From positions 13,539-77,538 of the forward strand of contig CACCYL010000002.1 of NCBI GenBank assembly GCA_902550225.1: DNA of 64,000 nt, read 5' to 3'. The notes beneath the pieces are model-generated. The model was not told the origin of the DNA and made no database searches. It worked only from the letters and a program-made list of their open reading frames with translations. Position 1 is the first letter of the stretch. Every line of letters starts with the position of its first letter. Position numbers and translations under genes: made by a program. Below, piece after piece: positions 19,401 to 39,218 of the stretch. Origin of the DNA: an uncultured Alphaproteobacteria bacterium. GTDB taxonomy: Bacteria; Pseudomonadota; Alphaproteobacteria; Methylaequorales; Methylaequoraceae.

Positions 19401-22400
19401 ATGAAAGGAAATAGTCAACAAATAAATTTCAACGACAGTGGGTTTTTAACTAAAATATATGCTGGCAGCACCATTGACATTGAAGGATTGCCAAGTTGGT
19501 TACCAAAGGCAAATTTTTCAAAAACGCAAACAGACCTTCTGATAACTTCACCAGCTGGCGATGAAATATTATTAGTAGATTTTTTTACAAATTTTGAACT
19601 TCCCTCACTCAAAACCGAAAATGGTTTATTACTTAAAGGCACTTTAATTGATACTTTATCTGGATCATTCACACCTGGACAGTACGCGCAAGCCAATAAT
19701 GCAAATGCACTTTCGATTGGAGAGGTTTCTAGTGTTACGGGAGAGGCAAAAGCAACTCGTTTGGACGGATCAACTGTTAATCTTGCAACTGGAGATCCAG
19801 TTTTTCAAGGAGATACTGTAGAAACTACTGGGGCAGGGGCAATTGGATTAGTATTTCTTGATAAAACAACTCTCTCATTATCGGAGGGTGGAAAAATGGT
19901 TTTAGATGAACTTGTATATGACCCTGCAACAGGAACTGGAAGTATGGCCGTTGACATGGTTGAGGGAGCTTTCAGTTTTGTGAGTGGCGAGATTGCTAAA
20001 ACTGGGCCAGATGCAATGAAAGTTTCAACACCGGTTGCAACTATTGGGATAAGAGGAACTACGGTTGCAGGTAAAGCTGCAGTTGAAGGCAACGAAAACT
20101 CATTTACACTTCTACAAGACGCTGATGGAGGAGTAGGACAAATATCTGTGAGTAATGCCGGTGGAACTCAAGTTCTAGCACAGGTTGGTGCGACCACGAG
20201 TATAACGAGTTTTACAGCTCCACCCCCACCCCCAATTATTTTAAGTGCAGCACAAATTCAAGCAAATTATGGAACAGCTTTAAATGTTTTACCACCAACG
20301 CCTGTGGTTGCTCCAACACCACAACCACCCCCACCGCCTCAAGAACAACAACAGGAGCAAGTTCAAGAAGAGGAGTCTCAAGAGGAAGAAGAGGCAGTAG
20401 AAGAGGAGGCTGTTGAAGAGGAATTACAAGAGGAGGGAGAAGGTCCTCCAGAAGGAGAGGAGGGAGAAGGTCCTCCAGAGGGTGAAGAAGGAGAAGGTCC
20501 TCCAGAAGGAGAAGGTCCTCCAGAAGGAGAAGAGGGCCCGCCGATTGGACCTGATGGAGAACCGTTAGCAGAAGAAGGACCTCCCGAAGGAGACGGCCCG
20601 CCGATTGGACCTGATGGAGAGCCATTAGCAGAAGGAGAAGGCGGTCCACCAATAGGACCTGATGGAGAACCCTTACCACCTGGAGAAGGCGGTCCGCCGA
20701 TTGGACCCGATGGAGAGCCACTAGCTGACGGTCCACCAATAGGACCTGATGGAGAACCCTTACCGCCTGGAGATTTTGGTCCTGGAGGCCCGCCGATTGG
20801 ACCCGATGGAGAGCCACTAGCTGACGGCCCACCAATAGGACCTGACGGAGAACCCCTGCCACCTGGAGATTTTGGTCCTGGTGGTCCTACACCTGAACAA
20901 GACGCAGCTGCAAGAGAGGCTTTTGAAACTGCATTGGCCGCCGGTTTATCTCCTGAAGAAGCAATGGCAGAAGCCGCTGCTGCTGCTGGAATTCCTCCAC
21001 CACCAGGAGGGTTCGGAGGAGATCCTTTGTCAGCAACAGTTGGAGGTGATGAGTTTGCAGGAGGTCCTCTTGGTCCAGGCGGTCCAGGAGATTTTGGTCC
21101 GGGAGGTCCAGGAGACTTTGGTCCTGGTGGTCCAGGAGACTTTGGTCCGGGAGGTCCAGGAGATTTTGGTCCTGGTGGTCCAGGAGACTTTGGTCCTGGT
21201 GGCCCAGGAGACTTTGGTCCGGGTGACCCTGATGATTTTGGTTTTGGAGGTCCAGGAGATTTTGGTCCAGGAGGCCCAGGAGATTTTGGTCCTGGTGGTC
21301 CAGGTGGATTCGGTGATCCACTTTCATTTTTAGGACCCGCTCCTGATAATGCCGCAACTTTTGCGCCTCTAGGTGGTCCAATGGATCCTAATGATCCATT
21401 TGCTGCTTTCGGGGGGAATGCTTTTGGTGATAGCCCAATTGGTTTGCCAGGTGGTCCAGGCGGTCCTGGTGGTCCAGGAGACTTCGGTCCGGGAGGTCCC
21501 GGTGGTCCAGGAGACTTCGGTCCGGGAGGTCCTGGTGGTCCAGGAGATTTTGGACCAGGTGGAGGACCTGGAAATTTCGATTCTGGCTCGGGCGGTGATC
21601 AAGGGTCCTTTGGAACTTTTCTTCCACCAGGTTCTTTTCAACCACCTGGTACTGTTCAACAGCCAGGTGCTTATATCCCAGCTCAAGTAGGTTTTGCTCC
21701 AATTGCACCTGTTACAACAGCTCCCGTAATTGGTTCGGGTTTTTCAGCCAATGATGGTGGTGGTTTTCACGGAGGTCCTGGTGGACCTGCAGGTTTTGAT
21801 CCAGGTGGGGGTCCCGGTGATTTTGGTCCAGGTGGTCCAGGTGGTCCCGGTGATTTTGGTCCGGGAGGTCCAGGAGACTTTGGTCCAGGAGGCCCTGGTG
21901 GCTTTAGTCCAGCTGGCTTTGGTGCTGATGGCTTTGGTCCAGGAGGCTTTGGTCCTGCAGGCTTTGGTCCTGCAGGCTTTGGTCCTGGAGGCTTTGGTCC
22001 AGGAGGTTTCGGTCCTACGGGTTTTGGTCCTGGAGGCTTTGGTCCAGGAGGTTTTGGTCCTGCAGGTTTTGGTCCTGCAGGCTTCGGTCCTGCAGGCTTT
22101 GATCCATATGGTCCTGATCCAAGCGGTGGAGTGCCTGCTGGAGATTTTTATTATGAAGATGCAAGTATGTATGAGAATACTGGAGAAGCAGAAGGTTCTG
22201 AATCTGGAAGCGGAAGTGGAGGTGGAAGTAGTGGGACTACATTCATAGGATCAAATAATGTTGATAACGTTGATAAATCTGCGGAATCCGTCGCATGGCG
22301 TTTTGAAGGTTATAGCGGGGCAGATATTTTCAAGGGTGGGTCTGGTGATGATATCTTTTGGGGAGCAATTGATGGTGATACTTTAACTGGTAATGCTGGG

Positions 22401-22883: not shown

Positions 22884-22906
22884 AGCTCCTAATAAATAGA
22901 GCTTTT
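22882..22906 (+). terminator. Weak hairpin after the first FecR/RTX gene
   Basis: AAAGCTC...GAGCTTT followed by a short T run. Confidence 0.35.
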
Positions 22907-22924
22907 AACTAAATAAATTTCCTT

Positions 22925-22954
22925 TTAGGTCGTAAATATAGCATTAACAGTGGT
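22925..22954 (+). promoter_or_regulatory. Bipartite motif TTAGGTC-N14-AACAGTGGT (copy 2)
   Basis: Matches 19346-19375 in both half-sites and in the 14-nt spacer length. Confidence 0.5.
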
Positions 22955-22963
22955 TCGTGGAAT

Positions 22964-25618
22964 GTGTATAATGAAAATCAAATAAATGTCATTAAAATTG
23001 ACAAAGTAGACTCAATACGATCATCTATTGAAGGTCTAAAAGACAAGCTTTTTATCAATGATCTTAAAAAAGATCTTCAAGAATTCATAGATACAAATGT
23101 TGAATTAGATAAAAGCAATAATCATTTAAAAATCCCAACAATTAAAGAGGCTCCCTCTTGGTTTCCGAAAGCTAACTTATCAAAAACGCAAACGGATTTA
23201 ATAGCAACATCAGTTGATGGCGAAGAATTCATTTTTTTTGATTATTTTACAAATCATCGACTCCCATCTATCCAAACAGAAAATGGTTTAAATTTTCATG
23301 GAGGTTTAGTAGATAGGTTGGCTGGTTTATTTGCAAAAGGTCAGTATGTTCAGGCGTCTCTTGATGGTGAGTTATCGATCGGAGAAGTGTCGAGTTTAAC
23401 GGGTGTAGCCAAAGCAAAACGAGTTGATGGTAGCGAATTTAACTTATCAAATGGTGACCCTGTATTTCAAGGAGATACAATAACAGTTTCAAATTCTGGT
23501 GCGGTTGGTCTGACATTTTTGGATAAAACCACGTTATCTTTATCGGAAGGTGGAAAGATGCTTTTAGATGAGTTGGTTTATAATCCTGAAACTGGGGATG
23601 GGAATATGACTATCGACATGGTTGAGGGTGCATTCAGTTTTATAAGTGGAGAGATAGCAAAAACTGGAGAAGATGCCATGACCATAAAAACGCCTGTTGC
23701 AACCATCGGAATTAGAGGAACTACAGTTGCCGGTAAAGCTGCGGTGGAAGGAAACGAAAACTCATTTACTTTACTTCAGGATGCCGATGGAGGAGTAGGG
23801 CAAATATCTATCAGTAACGCTGGAGGCACACAAATACTAGAACAAGTTGGTGCAACCACAAGTGTAGTAAGTTTTAATGCCCCACCACCTCCACCAATTA
23901 TTTTAAGCGCTGCACAGATTCAAGCTAATTATGGAACAGCTTTAAACGTTTTGCCACCTACACCAACTGTAGCACCCACACCGCAAGAGGTTCCAGCACA
24001 ACAAGATCAACAGCAAGAAGAAGCTCAAGAAGAAGCTTCAGAAGAAGAATCTGATGAAGAAGCAGAAGAAACTTCGGAAGAAGTTATAGAAGAAGAAGGT
24101 TCTTTAGAAGGAGAAGAGGAATTAGCTGAAGAGGAGGAATCAATAGAGGAAGAAATAGCAAGAGTTGAAGAAGATTTATTCGAGGAGGGTGCTCCAGAGA
24201 ACCAAGCACTAGCAGAAGAAGAGGTCGTAGCGGAAGAAGAACTAGCTCTACCACCTGAAGAAGCTCAACCTGGAGGTGATGAACAAGCTGCTCGAGAAGC
24301 CTTTGATACTGCACTTTCAGCTGGAGCATCTCCTGAACAAGCAATGGCCGAAGCAGCCGCAGCCGCTGGTTTTGATGAATCTGTGGCTCGAGAATCAGCA
24401 CTAGATAGTGGCCCATTAGGAGACCCTACTTTTGCACAAACATTTGCTCCTGGAGTTGGGGGGACAATATTAGGTTTACCACTTGGACCTGAACCAATCA
24501 ACGCTAGTCAAGATTCTGTAATGATACCGGTTTTTGGAATGGGGCCAGCATTTGGATCTGCAACAATGGATGTATTTGGAGGTCAGTTAAGTGGGAGATT
24601 TGAAAACTCTCTTCAAGCTGCTTCTGGTTTTGGAGACGAAATATTTGGATTTTTGGATGAAAATCCTTATAGTTTTTCTGATACAGAGTCTTCTGAAAGT
24701 TATTTTTTTGACGATCCGTCACTTTATGATGATTACAGGAAACAAGATTTTGATCAATCAACAGAAATCTCAAGTTCACAAACAACAAATACTTTTGATG
24801 GTACAAATTTAAACGACACCATTGATAAATCTTCTGAAACCGCAAGTGTCATCATAAATGGATTAGATGGAGCCGATACACTTGAAGGAGGAATAAATAA
24901 TGACACAATTAATGGAGGTGATGGGATTGACAAACTAGTTGGTAATCAAGGTGATGATATTTTAAGAGGTGATGATGGTAATGATTTTATTTTTGGAGGT
25001 GATGGTAAGGACAAATTGATTGGAGGTTTGGGCGATGATGAACTTAACGGTGGTGACCAAGATGATGTAATTGTTGGAGGTCTAGGTAGCGATACTCTTT
25101 ATGGAAATGATGGTGACGACAAATTTTATTTTGAACCAGGTCACATAGATGGAACTTCAAAAGATGAAATAATTGATTTTAGAGTGAGTGGTAATGATTT
25201 GATTGTCGGTTCTCAAGCTCCTTCGTCAGCTTATAATCGAAGTTCAATACATACAGATTCGTCTCAGTTTGGTAGTAACTATGATATTACCAGTAACTCC
25301 AATGAGTTACCCTACTTATTCAATTTTACCAATGATGTAACAACAGCCATTGCTGAGAGTTCTTCTGCTCTTGCTAATCACTTCACTGGTTTTTCAATAA
25401 GTGTAAGTGGAAGTGGAACTAATGATTTTGAAAATGAATCAATGTACATAAGCGTAGGTGACGGAACAGATACATATATTTGGTTTTGGACAGACACCAA
25501 TAATCATCATGGGATGATAGCTGATAGCGAACTTGAACCATTTGCTAAACTAAGTAATTATGATAATGATAATTTAACTGGTAACGAATTTTTATTTCAA
25601 ACAATTTCTGGAGTTTAA
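22964..25618 (+). CDS. Paralogous T1SS cargo: FecR-like domain + Glu-rich linker + RTX Ca-binding repeats
   Basis: FecR-like block nearly identical in protein to that of 19401; 10 tandem GGxGxDxLx-type nonamers (~24860-25130); GTG start uncertain. Confidence 0.85.
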   Translation: MYNENQINVIKIDKVDSIRSSIEGLKDKLFINDLKKDLQEFIDTNVELDKSNNHLKIPTIKEAPSWFPKANLSKTQTDLIATSVDGEEFIFFDYFTNHRLPSIQTENGLNFHGGLVDRLAGLFAKGQYVQASLDGELSIGEVSSLTGVAKAKRVDGSEFNLSNGDPVFQGDTITVSNSGAVGLTFLDKTTLSLSEGGKMLLDELVYNPETGDGNMTIDMVEGAFSFISGEIAKTGEDAMTIKTPVATIGIRGTTVAGKAAVEGNENSFTLLQDADGGVGQISISNAGGTQILEQVGATTSVVSFNAPPPPPIILSAAQIQANYGTALNVLPPTPTVAPTPQEVPAQQDQQQEEAQEEASEEESDEEAEETSEEVIEEEGSLEGEEELAEEEESIEEEIARVEEDLFEEGAPENQALAEEEVVAEEELALPPEEAQPGGDEQAAREAFDTALSAGASPEQAMAEAAAAAGFDESVARESALDSGPLGDPTFAQTFAPGVGGTILGLPLGPEPINASQDSVMIPVFGMGPAFGSATMDVFGGQLSGRFENSLQAASGFGDEIFGFLDENPYSFSDTESSESYFFDDPSLYDDYRKQDFDQSTEISSSQTTNTFDGTNLNDTIDKSSETASVIINGLDGADTLEGGINNDTINGGDGIDKLVGNQGDDILRGDDGNDFIFGGDGKDKLIGGLGDDELNGGDQDDVIVGGLGSDTLYGNDGDDKFYFEPGHIDGTSKDEIIDFRVSGNDLIVGSQAPSSAYNRSSIHTDSSQFGSNYDITSNSNELPYLFNFTNDVTTAIAESSSALANHFTGFSISVSGSGTNDFENESMYISVGDGTDTYIWFWTDTNNHHGMIADSELEPFAKLSNYDNDNLTGNEFLFQTISGV

Positions 25619-25670
25619 GATGTTATATGTTTATTTTGAGGGTAAGAGAGTGATATTATAAAATAATATT

Positions 25671-27260
25671 ATGAAGTTTTGGTTTCACATATTAAAAGAA
25701 AGTAACTCTCTAAATACTATTCTTTTATTGACTTTTTTTATTACTATAATGGGTTTATTAAGCCCAATTTTTATTATTCACATTTTTAATAGATATATCG
25801 CATTTGGCCTTCAGGGTACTTTGTTTTTTTTATTATCAGGTGCTCTTTTAGTTGCAGTATTCGAGTATATATTTAGGAATATAAGGAGTAAAATTTTATG
25901 TGAAATTCTCATAAATCCAATAAAATTTTTTAAATTAGACCTAATCAAAACATTTTTTGAGAGAGAAAATAAAACATCAAAAAGAAATTTTGTTGAAATA
26001 ATTGATTTCAACAATAATTTTTTTCAATTCATATCACCTAAAGTTCAGTCAAATCTTCTCGACTCAATTTTTGCAATTTTAATTATTATTATTCTTTTTT
26101 TTCTAGACCTTTTATTAGCAACAATTTTTTTAATTCTTGTTATTATTTTCCTGTTATTGCAACAAAGATTAATAAAAAATAAAAATCTAAACTTGGAAAG
26201 ATTAAATTTATCTAAGAATGATAAATTAATAATTAAAGAGATTGGAACTAATCAAGAGCTTTTAAAATCTACTCTAGCATTTAAATATTCTGGATATTAT
26301 CTAGAAAATTACTTAAATAAAAAATTAAAAATCGACTCTTCAACTGCAAATTTTGATGCTCAACAAATTTCCACCACGAGTTTTTTTGTTTTGTTATCAT
26401 CAATCATTACTATTGGATTTGGGAGTATCTTTGTGGTGAATGGAAATCTCTCTATTGGTAGCCTGATAGGATTTAATATATTTGCTACTCGAGCGTTGGG
26501 TACAATTTCATCAGTTCAAAATTCATATTCCATTATTGAGAGAACAAATATGTATCTTAGTGATTGCCAAGATTTTTTTAAAAATTCTAAAAATCGAGTT
26601 GAGGGTATGCAACTTAGTAAAATTATTGGGAATTACAAACTTAAAAATGTAAACTATTCTTTTGATAATGATAATAAGTATATAATTAAAAATTTCTCTG
26701 CTAATTTTAATTCTTCAGAAATTTCAGTTATTAGCGGAGCGAATGGCTCCGGAAAGACCACAATTGCAAAATTGCTCATGGGACTAATTAATCCAGAATC
26801 TGGAGATATTTTATTAGATGAAACTAATTTGGAGAAACTATCATTGCAATGGTATAAGAATCAAGTAGCTTATATACCTGAAGATGTTGAAGTGTTAAAT
26901 TCATCAATTTTAAATAATATTTTAATATCCAACCCTGATCTGAATGAACAAGAGGTAAGTAGACTGCTTCAAAATGTTGGATTAGATAAAGAGTTAAAAA
27001 AATCAGATTTAACAATAACTGATTCTATAAATAAAAATTATTCAAAAGGGATTTTAAAAAAAATACATATTGCACGGTCGATTTCAAAAATCTATCAAAT
27101 TTATATTTTTGATGATCCGTTATTATATCTAGATAAATTAGGTAAAAATATGGTACTTAAATTGATAGCCTCATTAAAAAGAGCTGGAAAAACTGTAATT
27201 TGTTTTTCAGAAGATACTGAAATTATTAAATTAAGTGATAAACAAACTAATTTAGGGTGA
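25671..27260 (+). CDS. T1SS ABC transporter (TMD+NBD) with degenerate ATPase motifs
   Basis: Walker A GANGSGKT; signature YSKGI, Walker B IYIFDD, no switch His (CFSED). Confidence 0.85.
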   Translation: MKFWFHILKESNSLNTILLLTFFITIMGLLSPIFIIHIFNRYIAFGLQGTLFFLLSGALLVAVFEYIFRNIRSKILCEILINPIKFFKLDLIKTFFERENKTSKRNFVEIIDFNNNFFQFISPKVQSNLLDSIFAILIIIILFFLDLLLATIFLILVIIFLLLQQRLIKNKNLNLERLNLSKNDKLIIKEIGTNQELLKSTLAFKYSGYYLENYLNKKLKIDSSTANFDAQQISTTSFFVLLSSIITIGFGSIFVVNGNLSIGSLIGFNIFATRALGTISSVQNSYSIIERTNMYLSDCQDFFKNSKNRVEGMQLSKIIGNYKLKNVNYSFDNDNKYIIKNFSANFNSSEISVISGANGSGKTTIAKLLMGLINPESGDILLDETNLEKLSLQWYKNQVAYIPEDVEVLNSSILNNILISNPDLNEQEVSRLLQNVGLDKELKKSDLTITDSINKNYSKGILKKIHIARSISKIYQIYIFDDPLLYLDKLGKNMVLKLIASLKRAGKTVICFSEDTEIIKLSDKQTNLG

Positions 27261-27264
27261 AAAG

Positions 27265-28536
27265 ATGACAGAGAAATGGGTAAAATGGAATTTATTAAAA
27301 AACGATGAAAAACCAAAAAACGTTATTAGTAAAAGACTTAAAGTATCATTAATTCTTTTCTCACTTATTTTTTTGTTGCTAGTGAATTTAAAAATTATAG
27401 AGGTATTAAGCCTAGCTGACGGAAAAATAATTCCCCAAGGAAGAATAAAGTATGTGCAACATTTGGAGGGAGGAATAGTTGAAGAAATACTGATTAGTGA
27501 AGGTGAAAAAGTTGAAATAAATCAACCTTTAGTTGTTTTATCGAAAGAAAAAGCAAGCTCTGAATTTGAGGAGATTAACTCAAGACTTAAATCAATTGAT
27601 TTGTCGATACTAAGAGTTAATTCTGAAATAAATTCTAATAATTCAATAGAAATTCCTGAAAATAAAAATAATTTATTTGATGAGGAATTAGTAAAATCTG
27701 AAAATGAACTTTTTCAAAGTAGAAGAAAAGCAATCAATTCTGAAATAAAGTCTAAGAAAGCAAGTATTGATAAAGCTAACAAAAATCTCAAAAATTTAAA
27801 AAAAAGATTAAAAATCGTTAAAGAACAAGAAGATATTAGTCAAAAATTGTTAGAAGTTGAAGCAACAAATAGATTAAAGCATTTAGAAATTTTAAGAGAA
27901 AGGCAGGAGGTTGAAGGGAGTATCGACGAACAACAATCTATTATTGATTTGAGCAAGAATGACTTAGAAAAGGTGCAAAACAATTACATAGAAGATTTAA
28001 ATATCGAGTTGTCAAAGTACCGAAAAGAAAAAGAAGAACTTAATAAAAGAATTCAGAAATATTCAGATAACTTAAATAGAACTATTTTAAAAAGCCCTGT
28101 ATCTGGAACAGTAAAACTTGTATCGGTAAATTCTAAAGGTGCTATTGTTGCTCCTGGTGTGACTGTAGTTGAAATTGTACCTGAAAATGAAAAACTAATT
28201 ATTGAGGCAAAATTACCTTTATCAGAAATTGGCTATGTAAAAAAGAACCTTGAAGCAAAAATTAGATTAAATACACCTGAAGGCTCTAGGTTTAGATCAA
28301 TAAAAGGGAATGTTGTTTTTGTAGGGGCTGATAGAATTTCTAGTAAAGACGAAGAGGGTTTTTATTTAGTCAAGGTGGAAACCTCTGAAAACTCTTTTGC
28401 ACGAAAAAACGAGGAATATAAACTTTTGTCTGGTGTTCCAGTTATGGTTGGTATTATAACTGGTAAAAGAAGTTTTATGGATTATTTCTTAACGCCTTTT
28501 ATAACAGGTGCAAGCTTTGCATTATCTGAAAGGTAA
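27265..28536 (+). CDS. HlyD family T1SS membrane fusion protein
   Basis: VQHLEGGIV, coiled coil, KSPVSGTV, GKRSFMDYFLTP. Confidence 0.93.
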   Translation: MTEKWVKWNLLKNDEKPKNVISKRLKVSLILFSLIFLLLVNLKIIEVLSLADGKIIPQGRIKYVQHLEGGIVEEILISEGEKVEINQPLVVLSKEKASSEFEEINSRLKSIDLSILRVNSEINSNNSIEIPENKNNLFDEELVKSENELFQSRRKAINSEIKSKKASIDKANKNLKNLKKRLKIVKEQEDISQKLLEVEATNRLKHLEILRERQEVEGSIDEQQSIIDLSKNDLEKVQNNYIEDLNIELSKYRKEKEELNKRIQKYSDNLNRTILKSPVSGTVKLVSVNSKGAIVAPGVTVVEIVPENEKLIIEAKLPLSEIGYVKKNLEAKIRLNTPEGSRFRSIKGNVVFVGADRISSKDEEGFYLVKVETSENSFARKNEEYKLLSGVPVMVGIITGKRSFMDYFLTPFITGASFALSER

Positions 28537-28537
28537 A

Positions 28538-28837
28538 TTATTTTACAGATGATTTGGAAATTGTTTCAGATTTGAATATTACGCCGTTTTTTTGAGAATT
28601 GAGTTTTAAATGTTTGTAAAGCTCATCAAAAATAACATTTCCTTTTCTTTCTTTGACAATGAGAGTAAGAATATCTGCTTCACTAGCATCACCAAATTGC
28701 TGTATGTCAAAAATATCTGTGGCTCTACCATTAGCATAACCCACTGAAATAACGTCTGAATTTTCAGAAAACTTTTTAACAACTTTTTGTCCTAAACCTT
28801 TTTTTATTAAGCCACCAATTTCAATAAACTTTGACAT
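28538..28837 (-). CDS. Divergent PII-like protein
   Basis: Paralog-like to 28840 (YANGRAT vs YARGTG; KNGVIF vs GKGIM). Confidence 0.6.
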   Translation of the reverse strand: MSKFIEIGGLIKKGLGQKVVKKFSENSDVISVGYANGRATDIFDIQQFGDASEADILTLIVKERKGNVIFDELYKHLKLNSQKNGVIFKSETISKSSVK

Positions 28838-28839
28838 AT

Positions 28840-29196
28840 TTATCCTCCAGCTCGTTTGATGACATCTTTAGGTATATAAGTCGCAACTCTGTCAAGTTTA
28901 ACCATCCACATTATACCTTTTCCAGGTGTATCAAGATTTCCTGCTAAAAACATTGATTCAAAGACTCTGTTCGATTGTTCTTTAGAAACTATAATTCTTA
29001 TTATTTCTTTTTGTTCATCTATAGTTACTCCAAGAAGTCCCATTCTATCTCTAATGCCTGTACCCCTGGCATAATTAATTGTTGCACCTTGCGCTCCAAC
29101 ACTGGTGGCAGCATCTATGATTTTATCGGCTAGACCACTTTCAACAACACAAGTGATTAAAAAAACGTCTGTTAAATAAGTGATATCTCTGGCCAT
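28840..29196 (-). CDS. PII-family regulator
   Basis: GAQGATINYARGTG, KEIIRIIV, LDTPGKGI. Confidence 0.88.
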   Translation of the reverse strand: MARDITYLTDVFLITCVVESGLADKIIDAATSVGAQGATINYARGTGIRDRMGLLGVTIDEQKEIIRIIVSKEQSNRVFESMFLAGNLDTPGKGIMWMVKLDRVATYIPKDVIKRAGG

Positions 29197-29208
29197 AATT
29201 TTTTCCTT

Positions 29209-30909: not shown

Positions 30910-30946
30910 AATCTATCATAACATATTGTAGAAATTAATAAAATCT

Positions 30947-31414
30947 TTATTCAACATGACTTGTTGACTTCTCTAATCTGTAAAGAATTTGCTTTGTTAT
31001 TTTTTTAATTATTTGATTCTCAGACTCTATAATCTCATCTATTTCATCATGAGAATAATGTACATTTTGATACTCATTTCTTTTAGCAAGTTCTTTACAT
31101 AAATTTAAAATTACTTTTTGTGCGGCCTTTGATCCAGAATTAATTAGTTCATCAAGATTTTCTTTACTTATAGATATCAACTCTGTGGATTGACTTGAGG
31201 TAATGGTTGCGCTTCTGTTTTGTTGTAAAATTAAAGCCATTTCACCAAAAACCTCTCCATCTCTCATAGACCCAACTTTTTTTCCATCAACTAATACGTC
31301 CAGCGATCCAGAAACTATCATGTAAGCTTTATCGCCTTTGTCGCCTTGATTAAAGAGCGTCTCGCCCTCTAACATCAAAACTTTTGTTGTTTTTCCGTGA
31401 CTTATCTCTTTCAA
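30947..31414 (-). CDS. Stand-alone cyclic-nucleotide-binding protein
   Basis: LFNQGDKG, FGEMALILQQNRSAT phosphate-binding cassette; no HTH evident. Confidence 0.9.
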   Translation of the reverse strand: MKEISHGKTTKVLMLEGETLFNQGDKGDKAYMIVSGSLDVLVDGKKVGSMRDGEVFGEMALILQQNRSATITSSQSTELISISKENLDELINSGSKAAQKVILNLCKELAKRNEYQNVHYSHDEIDEIIESENQIIKKITKQILYRLEKSTSHVE

Positions 31415-31851
31415 GAAAATATCCTTTGAGATAATCTATAGTGAATCTGAAGCGCTAAAGCTCTTATTACGTTGGGAGAGTCCTTAGTTAGTTTTACAAG
31501 ATCAGCTTTGGTAATTGGAAGTTTTTGGTTATCTGATTTTCCTAATTCCTTAGACATTTCATTAATTACTTTATGAAGATCAATGTTAGAGGATAATAAA
31601 ATAGCTTCCAACGCCTTTCTTTTTATTTCAACAATTTCACTTGGTACAATTGCTTTTATGCTCGCAGTTCTGTTTTCATTTAGAATTAAAGACAATTCTC
31701 CAAAGATTTCACCTGTTTCAATTTTTCCTATCTTTTTTCCTTCAATTTCTGCAACTAGTCCACCTGAAATAACTAGAAAAGCTGTTTCTCCTTTTTCGCC
31801 CTCTCGAACAATATATTGATCTGGAAGAACTCTTATTTTTTTTAAACCCAT
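31411..31851 (-). CDS. Stand-alone cyclic-nucleotide-binding protein
   Basis: IVREGEKG, FGELSLILNENRTAS; paralog of 30947. Confidence 0.9.
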   Translation of the reverse strand: MGLKKIRVLPDQYIVREGEKGETAFLVISGGLVAEIEGKKIGKIETGEIFGELSLILNENRTASIKAIVPSEIVEIKRKALEAILLSSNIDLHKVINEMSKELGKSDNQKLPITKADLVKLTKDSPNVIRALALQIHYRLSQRIFS

Positions 31852-31866
31852 TTAAACCTAATTTTT

Positions 31867-34242
31867 TTATTTAGAGGTTGCGACAAAAACACCATCCCAA
31901 TCTTTTGGGGGAGGATACTTTTTAAATTCATTAATTCTTTCTGTCATCATTTCATAGTAATCTTTCATTAAATTTTTACAAAGTGTTTTTGCCTGAGTCA
32001 TTTCCTCGACAGCATCTTTCCAATTTTGATTAAAATAATGATTTAATACATTTTTATGCTTTTTTTCAAGATTTTTGAAATCAACACTATTTTTAAAACT
32101 TGGATCACCAAGTAAACAAAAAATTGATACAGCTTCTTTTTTTCCTTTTACTGCTAGCATATCAAGTTGGAGTGTAGCAAAAGTATCTTTAACAGCATCG
32201 TTTGTTTCTTGCCCAATAACTGTTTTAACTCCATAACCTTTTGATTGACCTTCAAGACGTGATGCTAGATTTACTGCGTCTCCCAGTACTGAATAGTCAA
32301 ACCTTTGATCCGATCCCATATTTCCAACAACACAACCTCCGGTATTTAGTCCAATTCCAATTTTTAATTCCAAAAAATCTTTATTTTCTGACTTCGCTTC
32401 TTGCTCTCTGATATCGTTAAGTTCTTTTAGTGCTTTATGCATACTTAATGCTGCTTCACAAGAAACTTGCTCATGTTTATCAACATCTATAGGTGCATTC
32501 CAAAAAGCCATAATACAATCTCCCATATATTTATCGATTGTTCCGTTTTTATTTATGATTTCATTAGTAAGAGGTGTTAAAAATCTATTTATAAGTTTTG
32601 TTAGGCCTTGAGGATCTGATTTAAAAGCTTCTGAAATTGTTGTAAATCCTCTTACATCACAAAAAAGAAATGTCATTTTTTTTGTTTCTCCACCCAAAAC
32701 TAATTTATCAGGATCTTCAGCTAATTGTTCCACTAAAGCGGGAGATAGATATTGAGAAAATGCACCCCTTATTTGTTTTTTCTCATTGGCATCACGTAAA
32801 TAGTTTGCAAAGGTGTTACTAAAATAAATTACAAAAGTTGTTACACCTGCAAAGGTTGGATCAAATAAAGTTTTATGTTCAGTAAATAATCTTACACTAA
32901 TATAAAATGCTGAACTTATTATGGTTACAAGTGATGAAATATTTACAATTGGACCAAACTTTAATGCAGATACTGTGATAAATAATGCAAGCAAAATTGT
33001 AAAGAGTGCTTCATAAAATTTCATATTTGCACCAGATTTCAAAAAAGGTGATCCTGAAATTTTAACTTTGTTTTTTTCAATTATTGCTTCTTCTTCACTT
33101 AAACCTTTTTTTAATGCATCTTTATAAACTTTTTCAGAATTTTTTGTGGAAGTATAATAAAGAATTGCTGAAATGACTGTATCAATGAGATTTGCATGAA
33201 TTTCGACACCTGGCATTCTTTCATCGACTGGAGTGGGTCTAATATCCTTTAACCCAGTGGCCGATGTGCCTAATATACCAAGTTTTCCTTGTAATCTATC
33301 TTTGCCGACCCTTCCTTTAATTATATCCACTGCACTTACATAATACCTTGATTTGCCTTCTTTAACTTTTCCAGCATCTGAATCACCATAATAAATCCAC
33401 ACTCTACCATTCTCATCAGTCGGAATAGCAGCATTACCAATAGCTTTAGTTTGAATTATTATTTCTTTAATTCCCGTCAAACCTGTCCTAGTGGCAATAC
33501 TATTTCCTTGAAACGCAACCCTTATCATATCAAGCCCAAGAGTTGGTCTGATTTCACCTGCAACATTTGATATTAAAGGTACTCTTCTAATAATACCATC
33601 TGGTTCTTGTGCAACTGAAACTGTACCAGACCCAGAAGCAGCTTTTTCAAACTCTGTCACATTAGCAAGCAATCCAGGATAAGATATCAACCATTCCTTT
33701 GGATTTTTACCTTTGCCAATAAAAACTTTTACAGATGAATCGTTTATATCATTTCTGTTTGCATCACCTTCAATATCTAATCCCGAGTGACCAATTATTA
33801 CAGGGAACTCATTCATAGCTTCCATTGCTAAAAACTCATTAGAGGGAAGTTCACTTAGTAGTTTGGCAATATTTGGGTTTCGTTTTTCTAAATCTTGAGA
33901 AATCAAATCGGGTGAAGTCCTGTCTTTTTCTGCAAATAGAACATCTAGGCCTAAAACGAGCATGCCCGATTCTTTAGATTTTTTAAAAAGATCAGCAAGT
34001 ACAGTTCTTGGCCACGGCCATTGACCAATTTCTCTAAGAGATTTTTCATCAATATCTACTATTACGGAATAAGTTTGACCATCCGTAGACCTTGGGAATT
34101 TTTTTTGAAGAACATCAAAATACTTTAGTCTAAGAACTTCTACTACTTCAGGATCAGCTATACGAACCAAACCAAAAAGAATAGCCATTAATACAGAAGC
34201 AATAGTAACAATTAGTCTAAAACTTAGCTTAAATTTGATCAT
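31867..34242 (-). CDS. CHASE2-domain adenylate cyclase
   Basis: IVDIDEKSL..GQWPWPR, DGIIRRVPL, GVEIHAN, 3 TM segments, FCDVRGFT, DKYMGDC, YSVLGDAVNLASRLE. Confidence 0.95.
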   Translation of the reverse strand: MIKFKLSFRLIVTIASVLMAILFGLVRIADPEVVEVLRLKYFDVLQKKFPRSTDGQTYSVIVDIDEKSLREIGQWPWPRTVLADLFKKSKESGMLVLGLDVLFAEKDRTSPDLISQDLEKRNPNIAKLLSELPSNEFLAMEAMNEFPVIIGHSGLDIEGDANRNDINDSSVKVFIGKGKNPKEWLISYPGLLANVTEFEKAASGSGTVSVAQEPDGIIRRVPLISNVAGEIRPTLGLDMIRVAFQGNSIATRTGLTGIKEIIIQTKAIGNAAIPTDENGRVWIYYGDSDAGKVKEGKSRYYVSAVDIIKGRVGKDRLQGKLGILGTSATGLKDIRPTPVDERMPGVEIHANLIDTVISAILYYTSTKNSEKVYKDALKKGLSEEEAIIEKNKVKISGSPFLKSGANMKFYEALFTILLALFITVSALKFGPIVNISSLVTIISSAFYISVRLFTEHKTLFDPTFAGVTTFVIYFSNTFANYLRDANEKKQIRGAFSQYLSPALVEQLAEDPDKLVLGGETKKMTFLFCDVRGFTTISEAFKSDPQGLTKLINRFLTPLTNEIINKNGTIDKYMGDCIMAFWNAPIDVDKHEQVSCEAALSMHKALKELNDIREQEAKSENKDFLELKIGIGLNTGGCVVGNMGSDQRFDYSVLGDAVNLASRLEGQSKGYGVKTVIGQETNDAVKDTFATLQLDMLAVKGKKEAVSIFCLLGDPSFKNSVDFKNLEKKHKNVLNHYFNQNWKDAVEEMTQAKTLCKNLMKDYYEMMTERINEFKKYPPPKDWDGVFVATSK

Positions 34243-35963
34243 GGTTCTGCAAAACTATTACCGAGGGTTCTTATAAGTGGATAAATAAAATACGTAATTA
34301 ATCTTCTTTGCCCAACTCTAAATTTTCCTGAGACTTTCATTCCTGGCATTAAATTAAATCCTGGAGGAATATCTTTTAACTCATTTTCTGTTATTTGAGC
34401 TCTAGCCCTATAAAAATTTCCAGGTTTTCCATCGACGTCTTTATCAATTGTGTCAGCAGAAACATAAATGAGCTTTCCTTTTAACTCACCGTGTTTTTGT
34501 GCTGGAAGGGCATTGAGTTGAATTTTAACAGATGTATCCGGAATCAGTTTACTAATATCAGAAGGATCAACATCAAAAACAGTTAATAACTCCACACCTG
34601 TTGGTACCAATGTAACAACACTTTTACCTTGTGTTATTACTGCTCCAGGATATAGAGAATGAAGGTCTAGAATCATACCGTCAGAGGGCGCTCTTACTAC
34701 AACATCAGTTTGTTGTCTTTCAAGTTTTTTTACATCTTCTTGTAGCGACATTCTTTGATCCTCTAATCCAACAAGCTCATCGTTTATTCCTCCAAAAAAT
34801 TGACTGTTATATTCTTTTCTATTAGATTTTAATTCGCTTAGTTTATTGCTTGTTTTTGTGAATTCTTTTTCTAAAGATAGTCTTTTGTTTTTCTCAGCTA
34901 AAACTTGTGATTCTGCTACTAGATCAAGTTCAAATAACTCCAACTTTGAATCTTCTAGCTGCTTTTGTATATCAAGTTGTTCCTTTATAAACTTCAAATC
35001 GTCTTCTGTGGAACCTATTTGTTGATCTAAGGAAGCAATCTTTGCTAAATATTGGTCTTTTTTATCTTTGAAGATTCTGCTTTGTCTTTCGTCATTTGGA
35101 TTTGCAACCGAAACATTATTCCTCAACAATGACTGCTTTTTTAGTCTATCAATTTTTGAATTAACAACTGAAAGCTGATAATCAAGTTTCATTTTATCGG
35201 CTCTTTGAAGTGTAGCATCGAATGTTACGAGTGGATCTCCTTGATTGACACTTTCACCTTTTTTAACAAGTATTTCTTTAACAACAGAATTATAGTTTGA
35301 TTGAACCTCTACATTTGGAACAACGGTAGTTATTTTTCCAGAAGCAGAAATTGTAGTATCAATTTCAGAAATAGTGCCCCAACTAATTAAAAATAAAACT
35401 AGGAAACCAAATGAATAAACTGACATTTTAACAGAACGAGGTACCTGTTTTGTTTTAATTCTATCAATGTCGTCATCAAATTCATCTAATAATTCACTCA
35501 TCATTTTTTTCTTTGATCTATTTTCTTTTTCTTCCTCAGTTAAAACCTCTTCTTGATCTTTGTTATTTTCATTTTCATTGCCAGATTCGAAAGCATCTAC
35601 AGATAATTTTTCGTTTGCATTTCTGGCGTAGCTTGCAAGCTGCTGCATCATATTAAAAGCGGTTTGTGGAGAGTTTTTGAGATAGCCTAGTAAAGCATTT
35701 TGATCAATTTCTTTTACCGTTGTCTCAACTGTCGCTCTTGCCATCGCACTTCTTGGTTGTTTGTCAATTAATGCCATTTCTCCAAACAATGCACCTTTTT
35801 CAAGTATTGATAAAGTGACGTATTCGTCACCGTTGAATTTGCATACCTCTATTTTTCCTTTTACTATTTGATAGGCATAGTCTCCAACTTCACCTTCTCT
35901 AAAAAGTACATCACCTGCAGCTAAATTTCTAACAGCCGGTTGTATATTTTTTTTATCAGCCAT
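34239..35963 (-). CDS. HlyD family membrane fusion protein with N-terminal cNMP-binding domain
   Basis: LFREGEVGD...FGEMALIDKQPRSA, then TM, coiled coil, RAPSDG, LMPGM. Confidence 0.92.
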   Translation of the reverse strand: MADKKNIQPAVRNLAAGDVLFREGEVGDYAYQIVKGKIEVCKFNGDEYVTLSILEKGALFGEMALIDKQPRSAMARATVETTVKEIDQNALLGYLKNSPQTAFNMMQQLASYARNANEKLSVDAFESGNENENNKDQEEVLTEEEKENRSKKKMMSELLDEFDDDIDRIKTKQVPRSVKMSVYSFGFLVLFLISWGTISEIDTTISASGKITTVVPNVEVQSNYNSVVKEILVKKGESVNQGDPLVTFDATLQRADKMKLDYQLSVVNSKIDRLKKQSLLRNNVSVANPNDERQSRIFKDKKDQYLAKIASLDQQIGSTEDDLKFIKEQLDIQKQLEDSKLELFELDLVAESQVLAEKNKRLSLEKEFTKTSNKLSELKSNRKEYNSQFFGGINDELVGLEDQRMSLQEDVKKLERQQTDVVVRAPSDGMILDLHSLYPGAVITQGKSVVTLVPTGVELLTVFDVDPSDISKLIPDTSVKIQLNALPAQKHGELKGKLIYVSADTIDKDVDGKPGNFYRARAQITENELKDIPPGFNLMPGMKVSGKFRVGQRRLITYFIYPLIRTLGNSFAEP

Positions 35964-35969
35964 TTTAAT

Positions 35970-38141
35970 TTATCCGGCCTTTTTTAAAGATTTAATTTTG
36001 TTCTCTACGCCTAAAATAGACATTTGCTTATTATACGTTTGACCAAAATAACCTGAAATTTGTCTTAATTCTTCAAAAGAACCCTGTTGAGATATTTTCC
36101 CCTTTTCAAGCACAAAGATTTTGTTACAAAGTCGAAGATGCCAAACCCTGTTTGATACGATAATTATCGTTCTACCAAGTGCAATATCTGATAGTGCATC
36201 GTATAATTTTATTTCACTGTCAACATCAAAACCTGTGAAAGCATCATCAAGTATCATGATACGAGGGTTTCTAATAAGTGCTCTGGCAATTGCTAGTTTT
36301 TGTCTTAAGCCAGTTGCAAGATTTGTGGCATTTTCCTCTAAGAATGTTTCATATCCATCAGGATAAGACTCAATTTCTTCATGTGCGAAAACTTTTTTCG
36401 CAGCCCAAGTTATCCTGTCCATGGAGGAATTTGGCATTGCACTCGCTATTGTTTCTCTTATTGTTCCTGGAAAAAAATAACTATCTGTTCCAACCAATGA
36501 AACCTGTGATCTTACATGACTAAGATCCAGTAAACGTAGATCTATATTATCCAGAGCCACGATACCAGCCTGGGGTCTATATAGACCCTGAATTAGTTTT
36601 GCGATAGTACTTTTTCCACATCCACTTTTACCTGTAATACCAATTATCTGTCTTGGATTAATTTCAATATCAATATCATTTAATACTTTTGTATTATCAT
36701 CGTATCCAAACTCAACATTTTTAAAACTAACTTGTCCCATAAGTTGAGGTTTTTGGCCTCTGACAGTTGTTTCGGAGTTTGCATCCACTATTCCTGATAT
36801 AATCTGAAGAGATTGAACTAATTTTGTTATTTCTGTTTTAAGTGTAACTAGATCAATTATTGGCTTTGATACTCTGCCGGCAAGCATATTAAAACCTACT
36901 AAAATCCCAGCTGAAAGAGATCCAGAAAATACAAGATGCACCCCTACAAAAATAACCATTGCAGTCATAAGTTGATTTATGGTTGATGAAATATTGTTTA
37001 AAACTGCTGACTTTTTTTGCATTTCTTCATTTGCAATAATATAATTTGCTTCCAAATCTCTCCACTGATCTTTCAAATTAGGTTCAAGAGCAAGTCCCTT
37101 AACATTCTCAATTCCGTTAACAGCAACAGAAATAAATTCTTGTCTTTTTGATTCAGCCTTACTTAAACCAGCGAGCGAATCTCTTTGTTTTTTTGAGTAA
37201 AACATTGATGCTAAAGCTCCTAATATACTAAAAGAAAACACAACAATAAATAGTAATGGGCTATAAAAAAATAGAATGGGAACAAAAACAAGTAAACTAA
37301 TTGAGTCCAGTGCTGTTGAGAAAACTTTTTGCGTCAGAAGGCTTTTGATCTGCGATATTTGGCCTGTGAATCTCAAAAAAGTAGCTGATTCTTTATGAAA
37401 CCTTTGCATTGGTAAAGCAATTAATTTTTCAAAAACTTTAACTGAAAGTTTCGCCTCAACCTTTTGTGAGAAAAAATCAAGAAGATATGACTTTAAATAC
37501 CCGAGTATTCCGTTAAATACATAAGCAACAACTACACCTGAAGTTATAACATATAAAGTTGAATAAGCTTCATAGTTTACAACCTTATCCAAAACCAACA
37601 TCATGAAAACAGCTGGTATAACTGCGAAAATGTTTAAAATCAAAGCTACAATTACAACTTGAAACATAACAGACTTGTTTCTAAAGGATTCACCTATTAG
37701 CCATCCAATTTTTAATTCACTGTCTTCTTCAAATTTTTTAAGTTTGGCTTTAAGAAGTATTACTTCTCCGTTCCAGCCTTTTTTTAATTCTTTTAAATTA
37801 ATTTGTTGAGGTTTCGGACTGGTAACACCAGTATCAAGACATAAAATTGACTTATCATCATCTTTTTCACCCTGAATAACTCTTAAAGCTATTATGTATC
37901 TTCCATTTTTAAGTCTTAAGATCTGTTGTTTTTTAGACAAGAGCTTTACTAGTTCCTTCTCGCTAATTTTGGTTGCTTTTGCTTTTAAATCAAAGGATTG
38001 AGCTAAGTCACACATTTCAGAGGTTCTAAGTTCTCTATCCTCAATTTGAAATCTTTCTGGAATATCATTTGGACCAATATGAACACCTAATTGTCTTGCA
38101 ACTAGAATAATTGATTTTTGAGAACCTCGCATCGCTTCCAT
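35970..38141 (-). CDS. T1SS ABC transporter with C39-like domain and degenerate ATPase motifs
   Basis: N-terminal C39-like region ending WNGEVIL with no evident catalytic Cys; Walker A GKSGCGKS; LATGL signature; Walker B IMILDD; IVSNR switch. Confidence 0.9.
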   Translation of the reverse strand: MEAMRGSQKSIILVARQLGVHIGPNDIPERFQIEDRELRTSEMCDLAQSFDLKAKATKISEKELVKLLSKKQQILRLKNGRYIIALRVIQGEKDDDKSILCLDTGVTSPKPQQINLKELKKGWNGEVILLKAKLKKFEEDSELKIGWLIGESFRNKSVMFQVVIVALILNIFAVIPAVFMMLVLDKVVNYEAYSTLYVITSGVVVAYVFNGILGYLKSYLLDFFSQKVEAKLSVKVFEKLIALPMQRFHKESATFLRFTGQISQIKSLLTQKVFSTALDSISLLVFVPILFFYSPLLFIVVFSFSILGALASMFYSKKQRDSLAGLSKAESKRQEFISVAVNGIENVKGLALEPNLKDQWRDLEANYIIANEEMQKKSAVLNNISSTINQLMTAMVIFVGVHLVFSGSLSAGILVGFNMLAGRVSKPIIDLVTLKTEITKLVQSLQIISGIVDANSETTVRGQKPQLMGQVSFKNVEFGYDDNTKVLNDIDIEINPRQIIGITGKSGCGKSTIAKLIQGLYRPQAGIVALDNIDLRLLDLSHVRSQVSLVGTDSYFFPGTIRETIASAMPNSSMDRITWAAKKVFAHEEIESYPDGYETFLEENATNLATGLRQKLAIARALIRNPRIMILDDAFTGFDVDSEIKLYDALSDIALGRTIIIVSNRVWHLRLCNKIFVLEKGKISQQGSFEELRQISGYFGQTYNKQMSILGVENKIKSLKKAG

Positions 38142-38173
38142 GACAATATAATATATTAATTTTTGATTTAATC

Positions 38174-38213
38174 AAAAAAAAAACCCCCTTAGAAACACCA
38201 AGAGGGTTTTTTT
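38174..38213 (-). terminator. Rho-independent terminator of the 38232-39218 gene
   Basis: Minus strand AAACCCTCTTGG-loop-CTAAGGGGGTTT followed by a long U tract. Confidence 0.85.
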
Positions 38214-38231
38214 ATTTATAAAGGTATAGGT

Positions 38232-39218
38232 TTAGACTACCTCACCACCATCATTTGGATCGTCAGGAGGTGGAGGCATATCTGCGGGCATATCACCTGG
38301 CATTGGCCCTGGATCTCCCGGAGGAGGTCCTTCTGGACCTTGATGTGCTCCCGCATCGTCCATGTGTGTATGCATGTCACCCATTCCATCCGGAGGAGGT
38401 GGAGGCATTCCATCGCCGTCCATGTCCATGCCTGGAGGAGGTCCCATTGGATCACCCGGAGGAGGTCCGCCTGGTTCTCCTGGAGGAGGTCCACCAGCTG
38501 GTCCACCTTCACCAAATAATGGATCTGGTCCTTCACCACCTGGAGGTGGTGGAGGCATTCCATCTCCATCCATATCCATGCCTGGAGGAGGTCCATCTGG
38601 TCCCATTCCGCCTGGACCCATATCACCTGGAGGAGGTCCGTCTGGTCCGCCGGCCATATCACCTGGAGGAGGTCCGTCTGGTCCCATTCCGCCTGGACTC
38701 ATATCACCTGGAGGAGGTCCATCTGGTCCCATTCCGCCTGGACCCATATCACCTGGAGGTGGTCCGTCTGGTCCGCCGGCCATATCACCTGGAGGAGGTC
38801 CACCTTCACCTGGAGGAGGTCCATCAGGAGCTCCTGGTAAATCACCAGGAGGCGGAGGTGGAGGAGCATCAGCACCTGGTCCCATGTCAGGAACAGGAGG
38901 CATATCAGGACCAAAATCCGAACATGGTCCGTCAGGACAACCATCTAAATGGGTGTCCATAACATCAGAGACAGCGTCAAAAGCCTCTTCTGCACTTGCA
39001 CCAGGGTTTTCAGCCATAAAATCGTTGTATGCACCTTGAGCTGTGTCAGCCATATTCATCATAACTTCGGGGGGCATACCTCCATCAGTCATAACGTCCA
39101 TTGCTGCAGTCATACATTCGTCAAAACTACCTCCACCTTGCATTACGTCAAACGCAGCAGAGCCTGCAGCGTCGCCGAGATCCATAAGTTCAGGAGGCAG
39201 TGTAGTAAAATCTGCCAT
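38232..39218 (-). CDS. Very acidic Pro/Gly/Asp/Met-rich repeat protein, candidate T1SS cargo
   Basis: AAGGAA RBS at 39225-39230, own terminator, located between tolC and ABC; GPDGPPPGDM repeats. Confidence 0.8.
   Translation of the reverse strand: MADFTTLPPELMDLGDAAGSAAFDVMQGGGSFDECMTAAMDVMTDGGMPPEVMMNMADTAQGAYNDFMAENPGASAEEAFDAVSDVMDTHLDGCPDGPCSDFGPDMPPVPDMGPGADAPPPPPPGDLPGAPDGPPPGEGGPPPGDMAGGPDGPPPGDMGPGGMGPDGPPPGDMSPGGMGPDGPPPGDMAGGPDGPPPGDMGPGGMGPDGPPPGMDMDGDGMPPPPPGGEGPDPLFGEGGPAGGPPPGEPGGPPPGDPMGPPPGMDMDGDGMPPPPPDGMGDMHTHMDDAGAHQGPEGPPPGDPGPMPGDMPADMPPPPDDPNDGGEVV

Follow-up and report, generated by a model that had tools for sequence, protein, structure and literature searches.

A two-helix unit in exported proteins of two neighboring type I secretion systems, and possibly in an adjacent sensor cyclase, of a marine alphaproteobacterium

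We analyzed a 64,000-nucleotide stretch of DNA (the window) from contig CACCYL010000002.1, part of a 1.23 Mb, 63%-complete assembly (GCA_902550225.1) of an AT-rich marine alphaproteobacterium. Two neighboring type I secretion system (T1SS) arms, a plus arm and a minus arm, hold proteins that share a short helix-hairpin motif. New here is a two-helix unit, without description in the family libraries searched, that occurs in the exported proteins of both arms, namely the FecR/RTX substrates P0001 and P0002 (the cargo proteins) and the small protein P0003, and possibly in the adjacent sensor cyclase P0004. Control of Lap-type adhesins is the textbook case of inside-out signaling at a type I secretion pore and runs through cyclic di-GMP (c-di-GMP), LapD, and LapG. 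We lean toward a reading in which the hairpin is a Lap-derived handle that works without LapG, while granting this reading slightly less than an even chance.

A conserved hairpin in otherwise unrelated linkers

A preliminary description of the window had listed five stretches in four proteins as copies of one motif, and translation confirmed all five at their coordinates (Table 1). It had also described the two FecR/RTX copies as conserved islands in unrelated linkers, a claim that direct comparison bears out. In BLASTP, the N-terminal 285 residues of P0001 and P0002 are 75% identical and the C-terminal RTX parts are 27% identical; between these parts only the motif aligns, with 16 of 22 residues identical (E 3e-4). 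The two copies are strongly non-random and constitute the sole similarity of otherwise unrelated linkers.

The motif also persists among relatives. A word-index search listed 120 homologues of the cargo proteins. A loose regular expression matched the motif in 76 of 124 proteins and yielded 56 distinct instances, from which a hidden Markov model (HMM), hereafter the cargo HMM, was built; it locates the motif at an independent E-value (i-E) below 1e-5 in 108 of the 120 homologues. E-values of our own HMM runs apply, here and below, to the small databases named. Loss of the motif in orthologues had been named beforehand as an outcome that would count against it, and these 108 proteins keep it. 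Twelve homologues were missed. Six of them are proteins of 486-510 amino acids (aa), one of which stops inside the motif; another three have it in weak form, and the remaining three lack it.

Helix 1 of the 28-residue unit follows the pattern A-x-E-A-F-x-x-A-L-x-x-G and is succeeded by a one-residue turn, an S/D-P-E helix start, and helix 2 (E-A-M/F-A-x-A-A...G). In an alignment of 30 diverse homologues, positions A446, F447, A450, G454, P457, E458, A460, and G469 (P0002 numbering) are invariant. The AlphaFold2 (AF2) model of P0002 contains helices at residues 438-452 and 457-467 with a predicted local distance difference test score (pLDDT) of ~70, forming an island between disordered stretches. 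Residues 341-437 and 469-605 fall below pLDDT 50, with values of ~30 around the motif, and the RTX beta-roll and C-terminal domain exceed 90. On this model, the helix-hairpin reading of the cargo motif holds with moderate confidence.

Each FecR/RTX substrate carries one unit, positioned between an N-terminal plug and a long Gly/Pro-rich disordered stalk. The plug comprises a FecR-like beta domain, which resembles the first half of the LapA retention module, and then an acidic spacer.

Base composition also varies along these genes. GC content reaches 54% at positions 20001-22000, compared with 25-35% for the genome, because of the Gly/Pro/Ala-rich repeats of P0001 (GPPIGPDGEPL, GPGGPGDF). The same effect is seen for P0003 (42%).

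P0003 and a wider tandem-repeat family

Two looser copies had been placed in P0003, corresponding to the units designated U2 and U4 in Table 1. As single sequences they do not stand: the cargo HMM gives window P0003 at most 1.2 bits (E 63 among 3,419 six-frame open reading frames (ORFs) of at least 60 aa from the genome), and a broadened unit HMM gives U2 5.4 bits (E 3.5, genome rank 7) and U4 9.6 bits (E 0.17, rank 4). At the family level they do. Of 24 genomes from the same family, 19 hold relatives of P0003, and in sister genera the two named positions are plain units. With the cargo HMM, orthologue L071 has two matches, one of 19.5 bits (E 1.2e-4 at Z=3419) and one of 10.2 bits, and orthologue L077 scores 10.9 bits. 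Profile alignment to the cargo profile with hhalign gives 31.0 for U2 and 30.2 for U4 (P 3.5e-7), scores that none of 100 column shuffles reached for either unit (maxima 17.4 and 14.8). By these measures, the proposal that cargo candidates of both arms have the motif in common is upheld.

The head of P0003 is modeled by AF2 as helices at residues 9-27, 32-45, 50-70, and 76-93 (mean pLDDT 67.7; predicted template modeling score 0.51). The resulting two hairpins are predicted to be the only folded part of the protein and precede a Pro/Gly-rich tail, which makes P0003 a minimal form of the cargo layout. P0003 lacks a signal peptide and begins with its head at residue 1. Pfam and NCBIfam scans of P0003 gave no match, a Foldseek search of the head against the PDB gave 0 matches at E<=0.001, and a protein atlas look-up of the head returned no usable match.

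A profile of the P0003 head retrieved 132 proteins at E<=1e-3 among 1.84 billion representatives. Sixteen of these were inspected: ten are acidic proteins with 2-5+ tandem units and Pro/Gly-rich spacers, and six are unrelated-looking repeat proteins. The HMM built from the FecR/RTX proteins alone detects 50 domains in 35 of the 132 proteins (i-E<0.01, best 35 bits). Because a cargo-only model re-finds these head-profile proteins, we assign the cargo motif and the P0003 head, on sequence grounds, to one repeat family. Scores of 42.4 and 47.4 for the P0003 units against a broad unit profile are circular and do not count as evidence, as that profile was built partly from P0003-head hits. No model covers the unit in a Pfam scan of ten repeat proteins (E<=1) or an NCBIfam scan of eight (E<=0.1). 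The unit is a member of a wider alpha-hairpin tandem-repeat family that is unnamed in Pfam and NCBIfam, and the original count of five copies of one motif understates the extent of that family. When genome contigs were searched with the head profile, 10 loci were recovered, all from uncultured Alphaproteobacteria that are apparently close kin.

Other proteins bear on the family without belonging to the five original copies. Two lie elsewhere in the genome. One, of 114 aa (G000:C9:17813-18001, L087), is a stand-alone paralogue of the head of P0003 and is conserved in several genomes of the genus. The other, a 226-aa AT-rich ORF (G000:C2:146895-147572, L086), contains two unit-like stretches, one of which (DEAISKGMSTEEAI) resembles the cyclase copy. 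In P0138, a 771-aa tandem-unit protein matched by the head profile, Pfam ABATE (PF07336) scores 62 bits over five stretches; a distant resemblance between the hairpin unit and a portion of the ABATE domain is possible.

Likeness to the LapA retention module and the LapG site

The preliminary description noted a similarity between the motif and the end of the LapA retention module, and this similarity holds at the profile level and by position. Both cargo proteins align to the model NF033682 (retention_LapA) over positions 4-68 of its 145, corresponding to residues 107-171 of P0001. Scores were 23.3 (P0001) and 23.8 in hmmscan and 28.0-28.2 bits in the genome search, with E-values of 1.5e-6 to 6e-5. 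From a search of 301 genomes of the phylum, 19 full retention modules of other Pseudomonadota were drawn, and these LapA-type modules end D-x-x-A-L-Q-x-A-I-x-A-G-x-D-P-T-x3-E-A-T-A-A-G. Aligned to this element by hhalign, the cargo motif scores 21.7 over 25 ungapped columns (P 6.5e-5), which none of 300 column shuffles attained (mean 8.1, maximum 15.1); a further hhalign score for the LapA likeness was 21.2. When windows were slid along LapA-type N-termini, the top-scoring ones were those over the LapG-targeting element.

Position offers stronger support for a LapA relation than the profile scores do. Class-level homologues of the cargo N-terminal module are 38-43% identical over ~270-310 residues. 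Beyond the acidic spacer they carry canonical DP...TAAG/PAAG sequences, LDPTAEELASIATAAG and LDPTPEELAQIAAAAGG in genome G025 and VDPEALGELAPAAG in genome G030; a PF06035 protease is present in G025 and was not found in G030. The cargo motif further resembles the LapG-targeting element of Pseudomonas fluorescens LapA and Desulfovibrio vulgaris DvhA and DVU1545 in that it lies after an N-terminal beta-rich domain and before an unstructured segment of a type I RTX protein. The layout is also similar: a helix, Gly, x-(D/S)-P, a second short helix, and small residues leading to AAG. As with the RTX adhesin retention module (NF033682; LapA and MpIBP), the cargo proteins combine an N-terminal beta domain match with an adjoining T1SS and C-terminal RTX repeats, and like LapG substrates they have a disordered segment after the site.

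The two systems differ in several respects. In a 2026 paper (PMC13090378), the LapG site is described as a poorly conserved targeting helix, DP, [T/A/P]AAG, and then a segment without secondary structure; helix 1 of the cargo family, by contrast, is highly conserved. The cargo element lies 170-250 residues from the beta domain, whereas the distance in LapA-type adhesins is tens of residues. Unlike the LapG-targeting element, the hairpin unit also occurs in tandem arrays of other proteins. The N-terminal domain of the cargo is a full FecR-type domain (PF04773, above cut-off), and at 884 and 1160 aa the cargo proteins are small and have none of the long extender arrays of LapA-type adhesins. By its scores, the LapA likeness of the cargo motif is modest.

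A separate observation concerns the class-level homologues L118 and L119 of genome G025. Their N-termini match a BapA prefix-like domain (NF033677, 23-24 bits, cut-off 35) before the FecR-type domain.

An insertion in the CHASE2 cyclase

The fifth stretch, a basic copy in P0004, lies in a lineage-specific insertion of ~35 residues that follows the last conserved block of CHASE2 and precedes the next (second) membrane helix; the insertion would face the periplasm. It is present in all 22 same-family cyclase orthologues and not in the class-level homologue L060; the 22 orthologues are close kin and represent roughly one evolutionary event. As a single sequence, the proposed copy fails, with a cargo HMM score of 1.2 bits (E 63) that 15 unrelated ORFs exceed genome-wide and a place outside the top 30 of the genome with the broadened unit HMM. 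At the profile level it stands: hhalign gives 25.9 against the cargo profile (P 1e-5), a score that none of 200 shuffles reached (maximum 15.4), and with the broad unit profile the score is 28.2 (P 7e-7), again unmatched by any of 60 shuffles. Across 100 sliding windows of the cyclase alignment, windows on the insertion score 26-28, one partial overlap scores 15.2, and non-overlapping windows reach at most 9.4.

As a control we used IlvC, which holds the best chance match of the genome (FETLVEAGYSPEMAYFE). Its family profile (14 distinct sequences) scores 16.4 and 17.4 in hhalign. The cyclase copy exceeds both composition and this hand-picked chance match. The resemblance takes in the first helix, the turn, and the beginning of helix 2, without the second half of helix 2 and without AAG, and only 21-22 columns align. 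We judge the chances about equal that the cyclase copy is or is not a true unit. A complex prediction for cyclase residues 28-405 and P0002 residues 100-480, run from separate alignments and without controls, gave 0.00 against a mark of 0.32 and is evidence neither way.

FecR-domain proteins and CHASE2 sensors are operon-linked in other bacteria (PMC5192318 and PMC5498481). The Burkholderia BiofilmReg operon and Sinorhizobium meliloti likewise encode an extracytoplasmic FecR-domain protein with a CHASE2 sensor, and in S. meliloti a single cyclic AMP (cAMP) regulon takes in the CHASE2 cyclase CyaD1 as well as SMc02177, a Clr target with a FecR domain. In the window, the FecR domain heads a type I secreted RTX protein, whereas the known pairs involve a Sec-exported LysM-FecR protein. 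The passages of the two papers that treat FecR/CHASE2 pairs contain no hairpin motif. In view of these links elsewhere, it is plausible that the cargo heads and the cyclase are functionally connected.

Gene content of the two arms

The features of the locus are collected in Table 1. By Pfam and NCBIfam, the T1SS sets flanking both cargo groups are complete. For the plus-arm ABC transporter, the best NCBIfam matches are to two T1SS permease/ATPase families, LssB and PrtD, each below cut-off.

Table 1. Positions of the hairpin units, their host proteins, and the surrounding secretion and signaling genes (nucleotides counted from the first letter of the window; cNMP, cyclic nucleotide)
Feature	Residues	Nucleotides	Strand	Basis
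GAF-PAS class III cyclase, heads plus arm		14936..17242	+	Pfam GAF, PAS, Guanylate_cyc
250-aa ORF between GAF-PAS cyclase and TolC, plus arm		17209..17961	+	HDxxHxG by eye
TolC-like outer membrane factor, plus arm		18007..19344	+	Pfam OEP
P0001, FecR/RTX type I secretion substrate 1, 1160 aa		19401..22883	+	Pfam FecR 138-225, RTX 970-1003
Hairpin unit of P0001, AAREAFETALAAGLSPEEAMAEAAAAAG	503-530	20907..20990	+	Translation; motif HMM 61 bits
P0002, FecR/RTX type I secretion substrate 2, 884 aa		22964..25618	+	Pfam FecR and RTX
Hairpin unit of P0002, AAREAFDTALSAGASPEQAMAEAAAAAG	442-469	24287..24370	+	Translation; motif HMM 66 bits
T1SS ABC transporter without N-terminal domain, plus arm		25671..27260	+	Pfam ABC_tran
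HlyD adaptor, plus arm		27265..28536	+	TIGR01843 288.5 bits, above cut-off
cNMP-binding protein, stand-alone, beyond cyclase		30947..31414	-	
cNMP-binding protein, stand-alone, beyond cyclase		31411..31851	-	
P0004, CHASE2 / class III nucleotide cyclase, 791 aa		31867..34242	-	Pfam CHASE2 24-360, Guanylate_cyc 520-705
Lineage-specific cyclase insertion, ~35 residues, around the basic copy	~362-397	33052..33159	-	
Cyclase copy, KVYKDALKKGLSEEEAIIE	371-389	33076..33132	-	Translation
HlyD adaptor with N-terminal cNMP-binding domain, minus arm		34239..35963	-	Pfam cNMP_binding 12-97, HlyD_3; TIGR01843 219.7 bits
HlyB-type ABC transporter with C39-like N-terminal domain, minus arm		35970..38141	-	Pfam Peptidase_C39 25.3 bits, ABC_membrane, ABC_tran
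P0003, small protein, four-helix head and Pro/Gly/Met-rich tail, between minus-arm TolC and ABC transporter		38232..39218	-	
P0003 head, two helix hairpins	9-93	38940..39194	-	AF2
P0003 unit U4 (second copy of the preliminary description), AYNDFMAENPGASAEEAFDAV	63-83	38970..39032	-	
P0003 unit U2 (first copy of the preliminary description), AAFDVMQGGGSFDECMTAA	21-39	39102..39158	-	
TolC-like outer membrane factor, minus arm		39331..40656	-	Pfam OEP

Cyclic-nucleotide parts surround the secretion genes: two cyclases, a phosphodiesterase-like gene, the cNMP-HlyD fusion, and two cNMP-binding proteins. The cNMP-binding domain on the minus-arm HlyD, together with the two stand-alone cNMP-binding proteins, suggests direct cyclic-nucleotide control of a T1SS adaptor. 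A full-text literature search gave no paper on such a cNMP-binding-HlyD fusion, and none of the papers retrieved on Pelagibacter, type I secretion, RTX, and FecR, judged from titles and abstract beginnings, concerned the present system. The phosphodiesterase-like ORF at 17209-17961 had no match in Pfam and NCBIfam scans; by eye it contains HD...HDMNHQG, which resembles a class I cyclic-nucleotide phosphodiesterase signature. As a hidden LapG this ORF was ruled out, being HD / phosphodiesterase-like by its HDxxHxG and having no signal peptide.

Divergent from the minus-arm TolC gene lies a Sel1-repeat protein (40907-41515, plus strand) with a signal peptide predicted by eye, a possible periplasmic peptide-binding partner. 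In one relative (G006, contig C6), several stop codons break up the P0002, cyclase, and P0003 homologues, reflecting either decay of the locus or poor assembly.

A proposed handle without LapG and its alternatives

Type I substrates exit C-terminus first. If the hairpin is a Lap-derived handle on the periplasmic side, a folded head (plug and hairpin, or hairpins alone) would stay in the periplasm with the disordered stalk threading TolC. The hairpin would then sit as the handle at the plug/stalk junction, as a descendant of the LapG-targeting element of Lap-type adhesins. With no LapG, LapD, or GGDEF found in the lineage, the handle would probably be read by a partner other than LapG or would simply act as a folded stopper. 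The cyclic-nucleotide parts may take over the regulatory role played by c-di-GMP in Lap systems. This is the account that we favor, tentatively and at a little below even confidence.

Several results weigh against it, beginning with the Lap regulators themselves. The preliminary description had seen no LapG-like protease in the window, and PF06035 was indeed found neither there nor elsewhere in the 25 family genomes (the window's own, 63% complete, and 24 others), compared with 3 of 16 class-level relatives. Six of the LapG-negative family genomes are 90, 93, 93, 96, 98, and 99% complete; three of these six (G009, G014, and G019) have strong N-terminal or full-length cargo matches, and the other three have short or weak ones. 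Cargo homologues as such occur in 19 of the 24 further family genomes. LapD_MoxY_N (PF16448) rose above cut-off in none of 41 genomes, and GGDEF was found in none of the 25 family genomes (G000-G024), compared with 14 of 16 class-level relatives. Synthesis of c-di-GMP may be wholly absent from the lineage. These negatives cover the genomes searched and do not prove absence, and close kin do not count as independent samples.

The sequence comparisons add further counterweights to descent from a LapG-targeting element. The NF033682 scores lie below the cut-off of 50, and the first half of the model alone is matched. In HMM-to-sequence comparison, the cargo motif and the LapA element score 0-4 bits in both directions, with the best-placed matches on the right element. 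None of five isolated motif segments matched NF033682 at E<=10, a test of low power in which the canonical DP...TAAG segments of G025 and G030 were included. FecR-type N-termini from 10 other Pseudomonadota (L026-L036) contain DP...[TAP]AAG in 0 of 10 cases within the first ~700 residues. The window motif has SP instead of DP, with a P-to-AAG spacing two residues longer than in LapA. Both window copies end in AAAG, and among the 56 distinct family instances, 25 have [T/A/P]AAG and 30 have AAG; because [T/A/P]AAG is found in just 25, the terminal AAG may be a mere helix C-cap. Two cargo homologues each carry two motif copies, which is unusual for a single cleavage site. Finally, hhalign P-values on low-diversity profiles of 20-40 columns are rough, and the unrelated IlvC control already reaches 16-17.

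One alternative is a generic self-folding alpha-hairpin, a structural module of acidic disordered secreted proteins that would serve as folding nucleus or spacer without a specific partner. The likeness to LapA and to the cyclase would then be convergence under helix-capping rules (Gly C-cap, S/D-P-E N-cap, and a helix rich in Ala with a final Gly). Such a module fits the tandem arrays of 2-5+ units in many otherwise unrelated-looking acidic proteins, the variable terminal AAG, the similar capping that IlvC FETLVEAGYSPEMAYFE shows by chance, the weak match of Pfam KARI_C on repeat proteins, and the lack of any specific structural neighbor for the four-helix head in Foldseek. However, 108 of 120 cargo homologues carry the unit at one and the same place, the plug/stalk junction, class-level homologues have canonical LapG-type sites there, and eight invariant columns in a free linker suggest constraint beyond the needs of a spacer. 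We regard the generic module as possible but rather unlikely.

The preliminary description had inferred a docking or processing tag that links the two arms, a role that stays hypothetical here. Hairpin-to-hairpin docking is a less probable explanation, and we consider it improbable. Here the retained cargo hairpin would pair with the CHASE2 insertion, the cyclase would sense periplasmic cargo and set cNMP for the cNMP-HlyD adaptor, and the motif would be the physical link of the arms. The insertion accompanies the cargo-motif family in every orthologue and is missing from the class-level homologue, it is the sole unit-profile match in the cyclase, and FecR/CHASE2 operon links exist elsewhere; moreover, a lone hairpin has an exposed hydrophobic face, and P0003 pairs two hairpins in one chain. 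Against this, the cyclase copy is insignificant as a single sequence and lacks half of helix 2 and the AAG, and co-occurrence inside one family of close kin counts as one evolutionary event. In a more elaborate version, which we rate as a long shot, the locus would be a counterpart of the Lap system that runs on cAMP and does without LapG, and the hairpin would be its common docking code. In that version a lone cargo hairpin would pair with its CHASE2 look-alike or compete for a common partner, P0003 would be a built-in competitor or plug, and the cell would sense cargo parked in TolC pores and answer via cNMP on the cNMP-HlyD.

A canonical LapG site, with the window AAAG cut by an ordinary LapG-type protease from an unassembled part of the genome, is very improbable. 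Both window copies fit the [T/A/P]AAG consensus as given in PMC13090378, and the genome is far from complete, but PF06035 was not found in any of the 25 family genomes, including the six at 90-99% completeness, GGDEF and LapD likewise were not found in the 25 and 41 genomes searched, and AAG is not conserved among the instances.

We give equally little credence to a cytoplasmic recognition element, in which the hairpin would be bound before export by the C39-like domain, a chaperone, or a cNMP-binding protein that holds or sorts cargo between the systems. C39-like domains, as in HlyB, bind substrates; the minus-arm ABC transporter has such an N-terminal domain, and P0003 starts with its head and has no signal peptide. 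Yet C39-like domains are described as binding the RTX region and not elements at the N-terminus, the correspondence in position with periplasmic LapG sites points to the periplasm, and the cyclase copy is predicted to face that compartment. Processing of a double-glycine leader by C39 was weakly rejected: the motif is internal, the Pfam C39 match is weak (25 bits), the domain start lacks, by eye, the Cys-Gly of active peptidases, and the hydrophobic spacing of the motif departs from the double-glycine leader consensus.

Implications

If the unit is merely a structural module, the interest of the finding is modest. The hairpin unit also defines a family of tandem-repeat acidic proteins in public genomes and metagenomes that is without cover in the libraries searched, and it offers a search handle for more cargo. 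A streamlined marine alphaproteobacterial lineage keeps cargo built as plug, handle, and disordered stalk, and the Lap protease, receptor, and second messenger were not found in its searched genomes. If the handle is still read, its reader would be a new regulator of type I secreted surface proteins.

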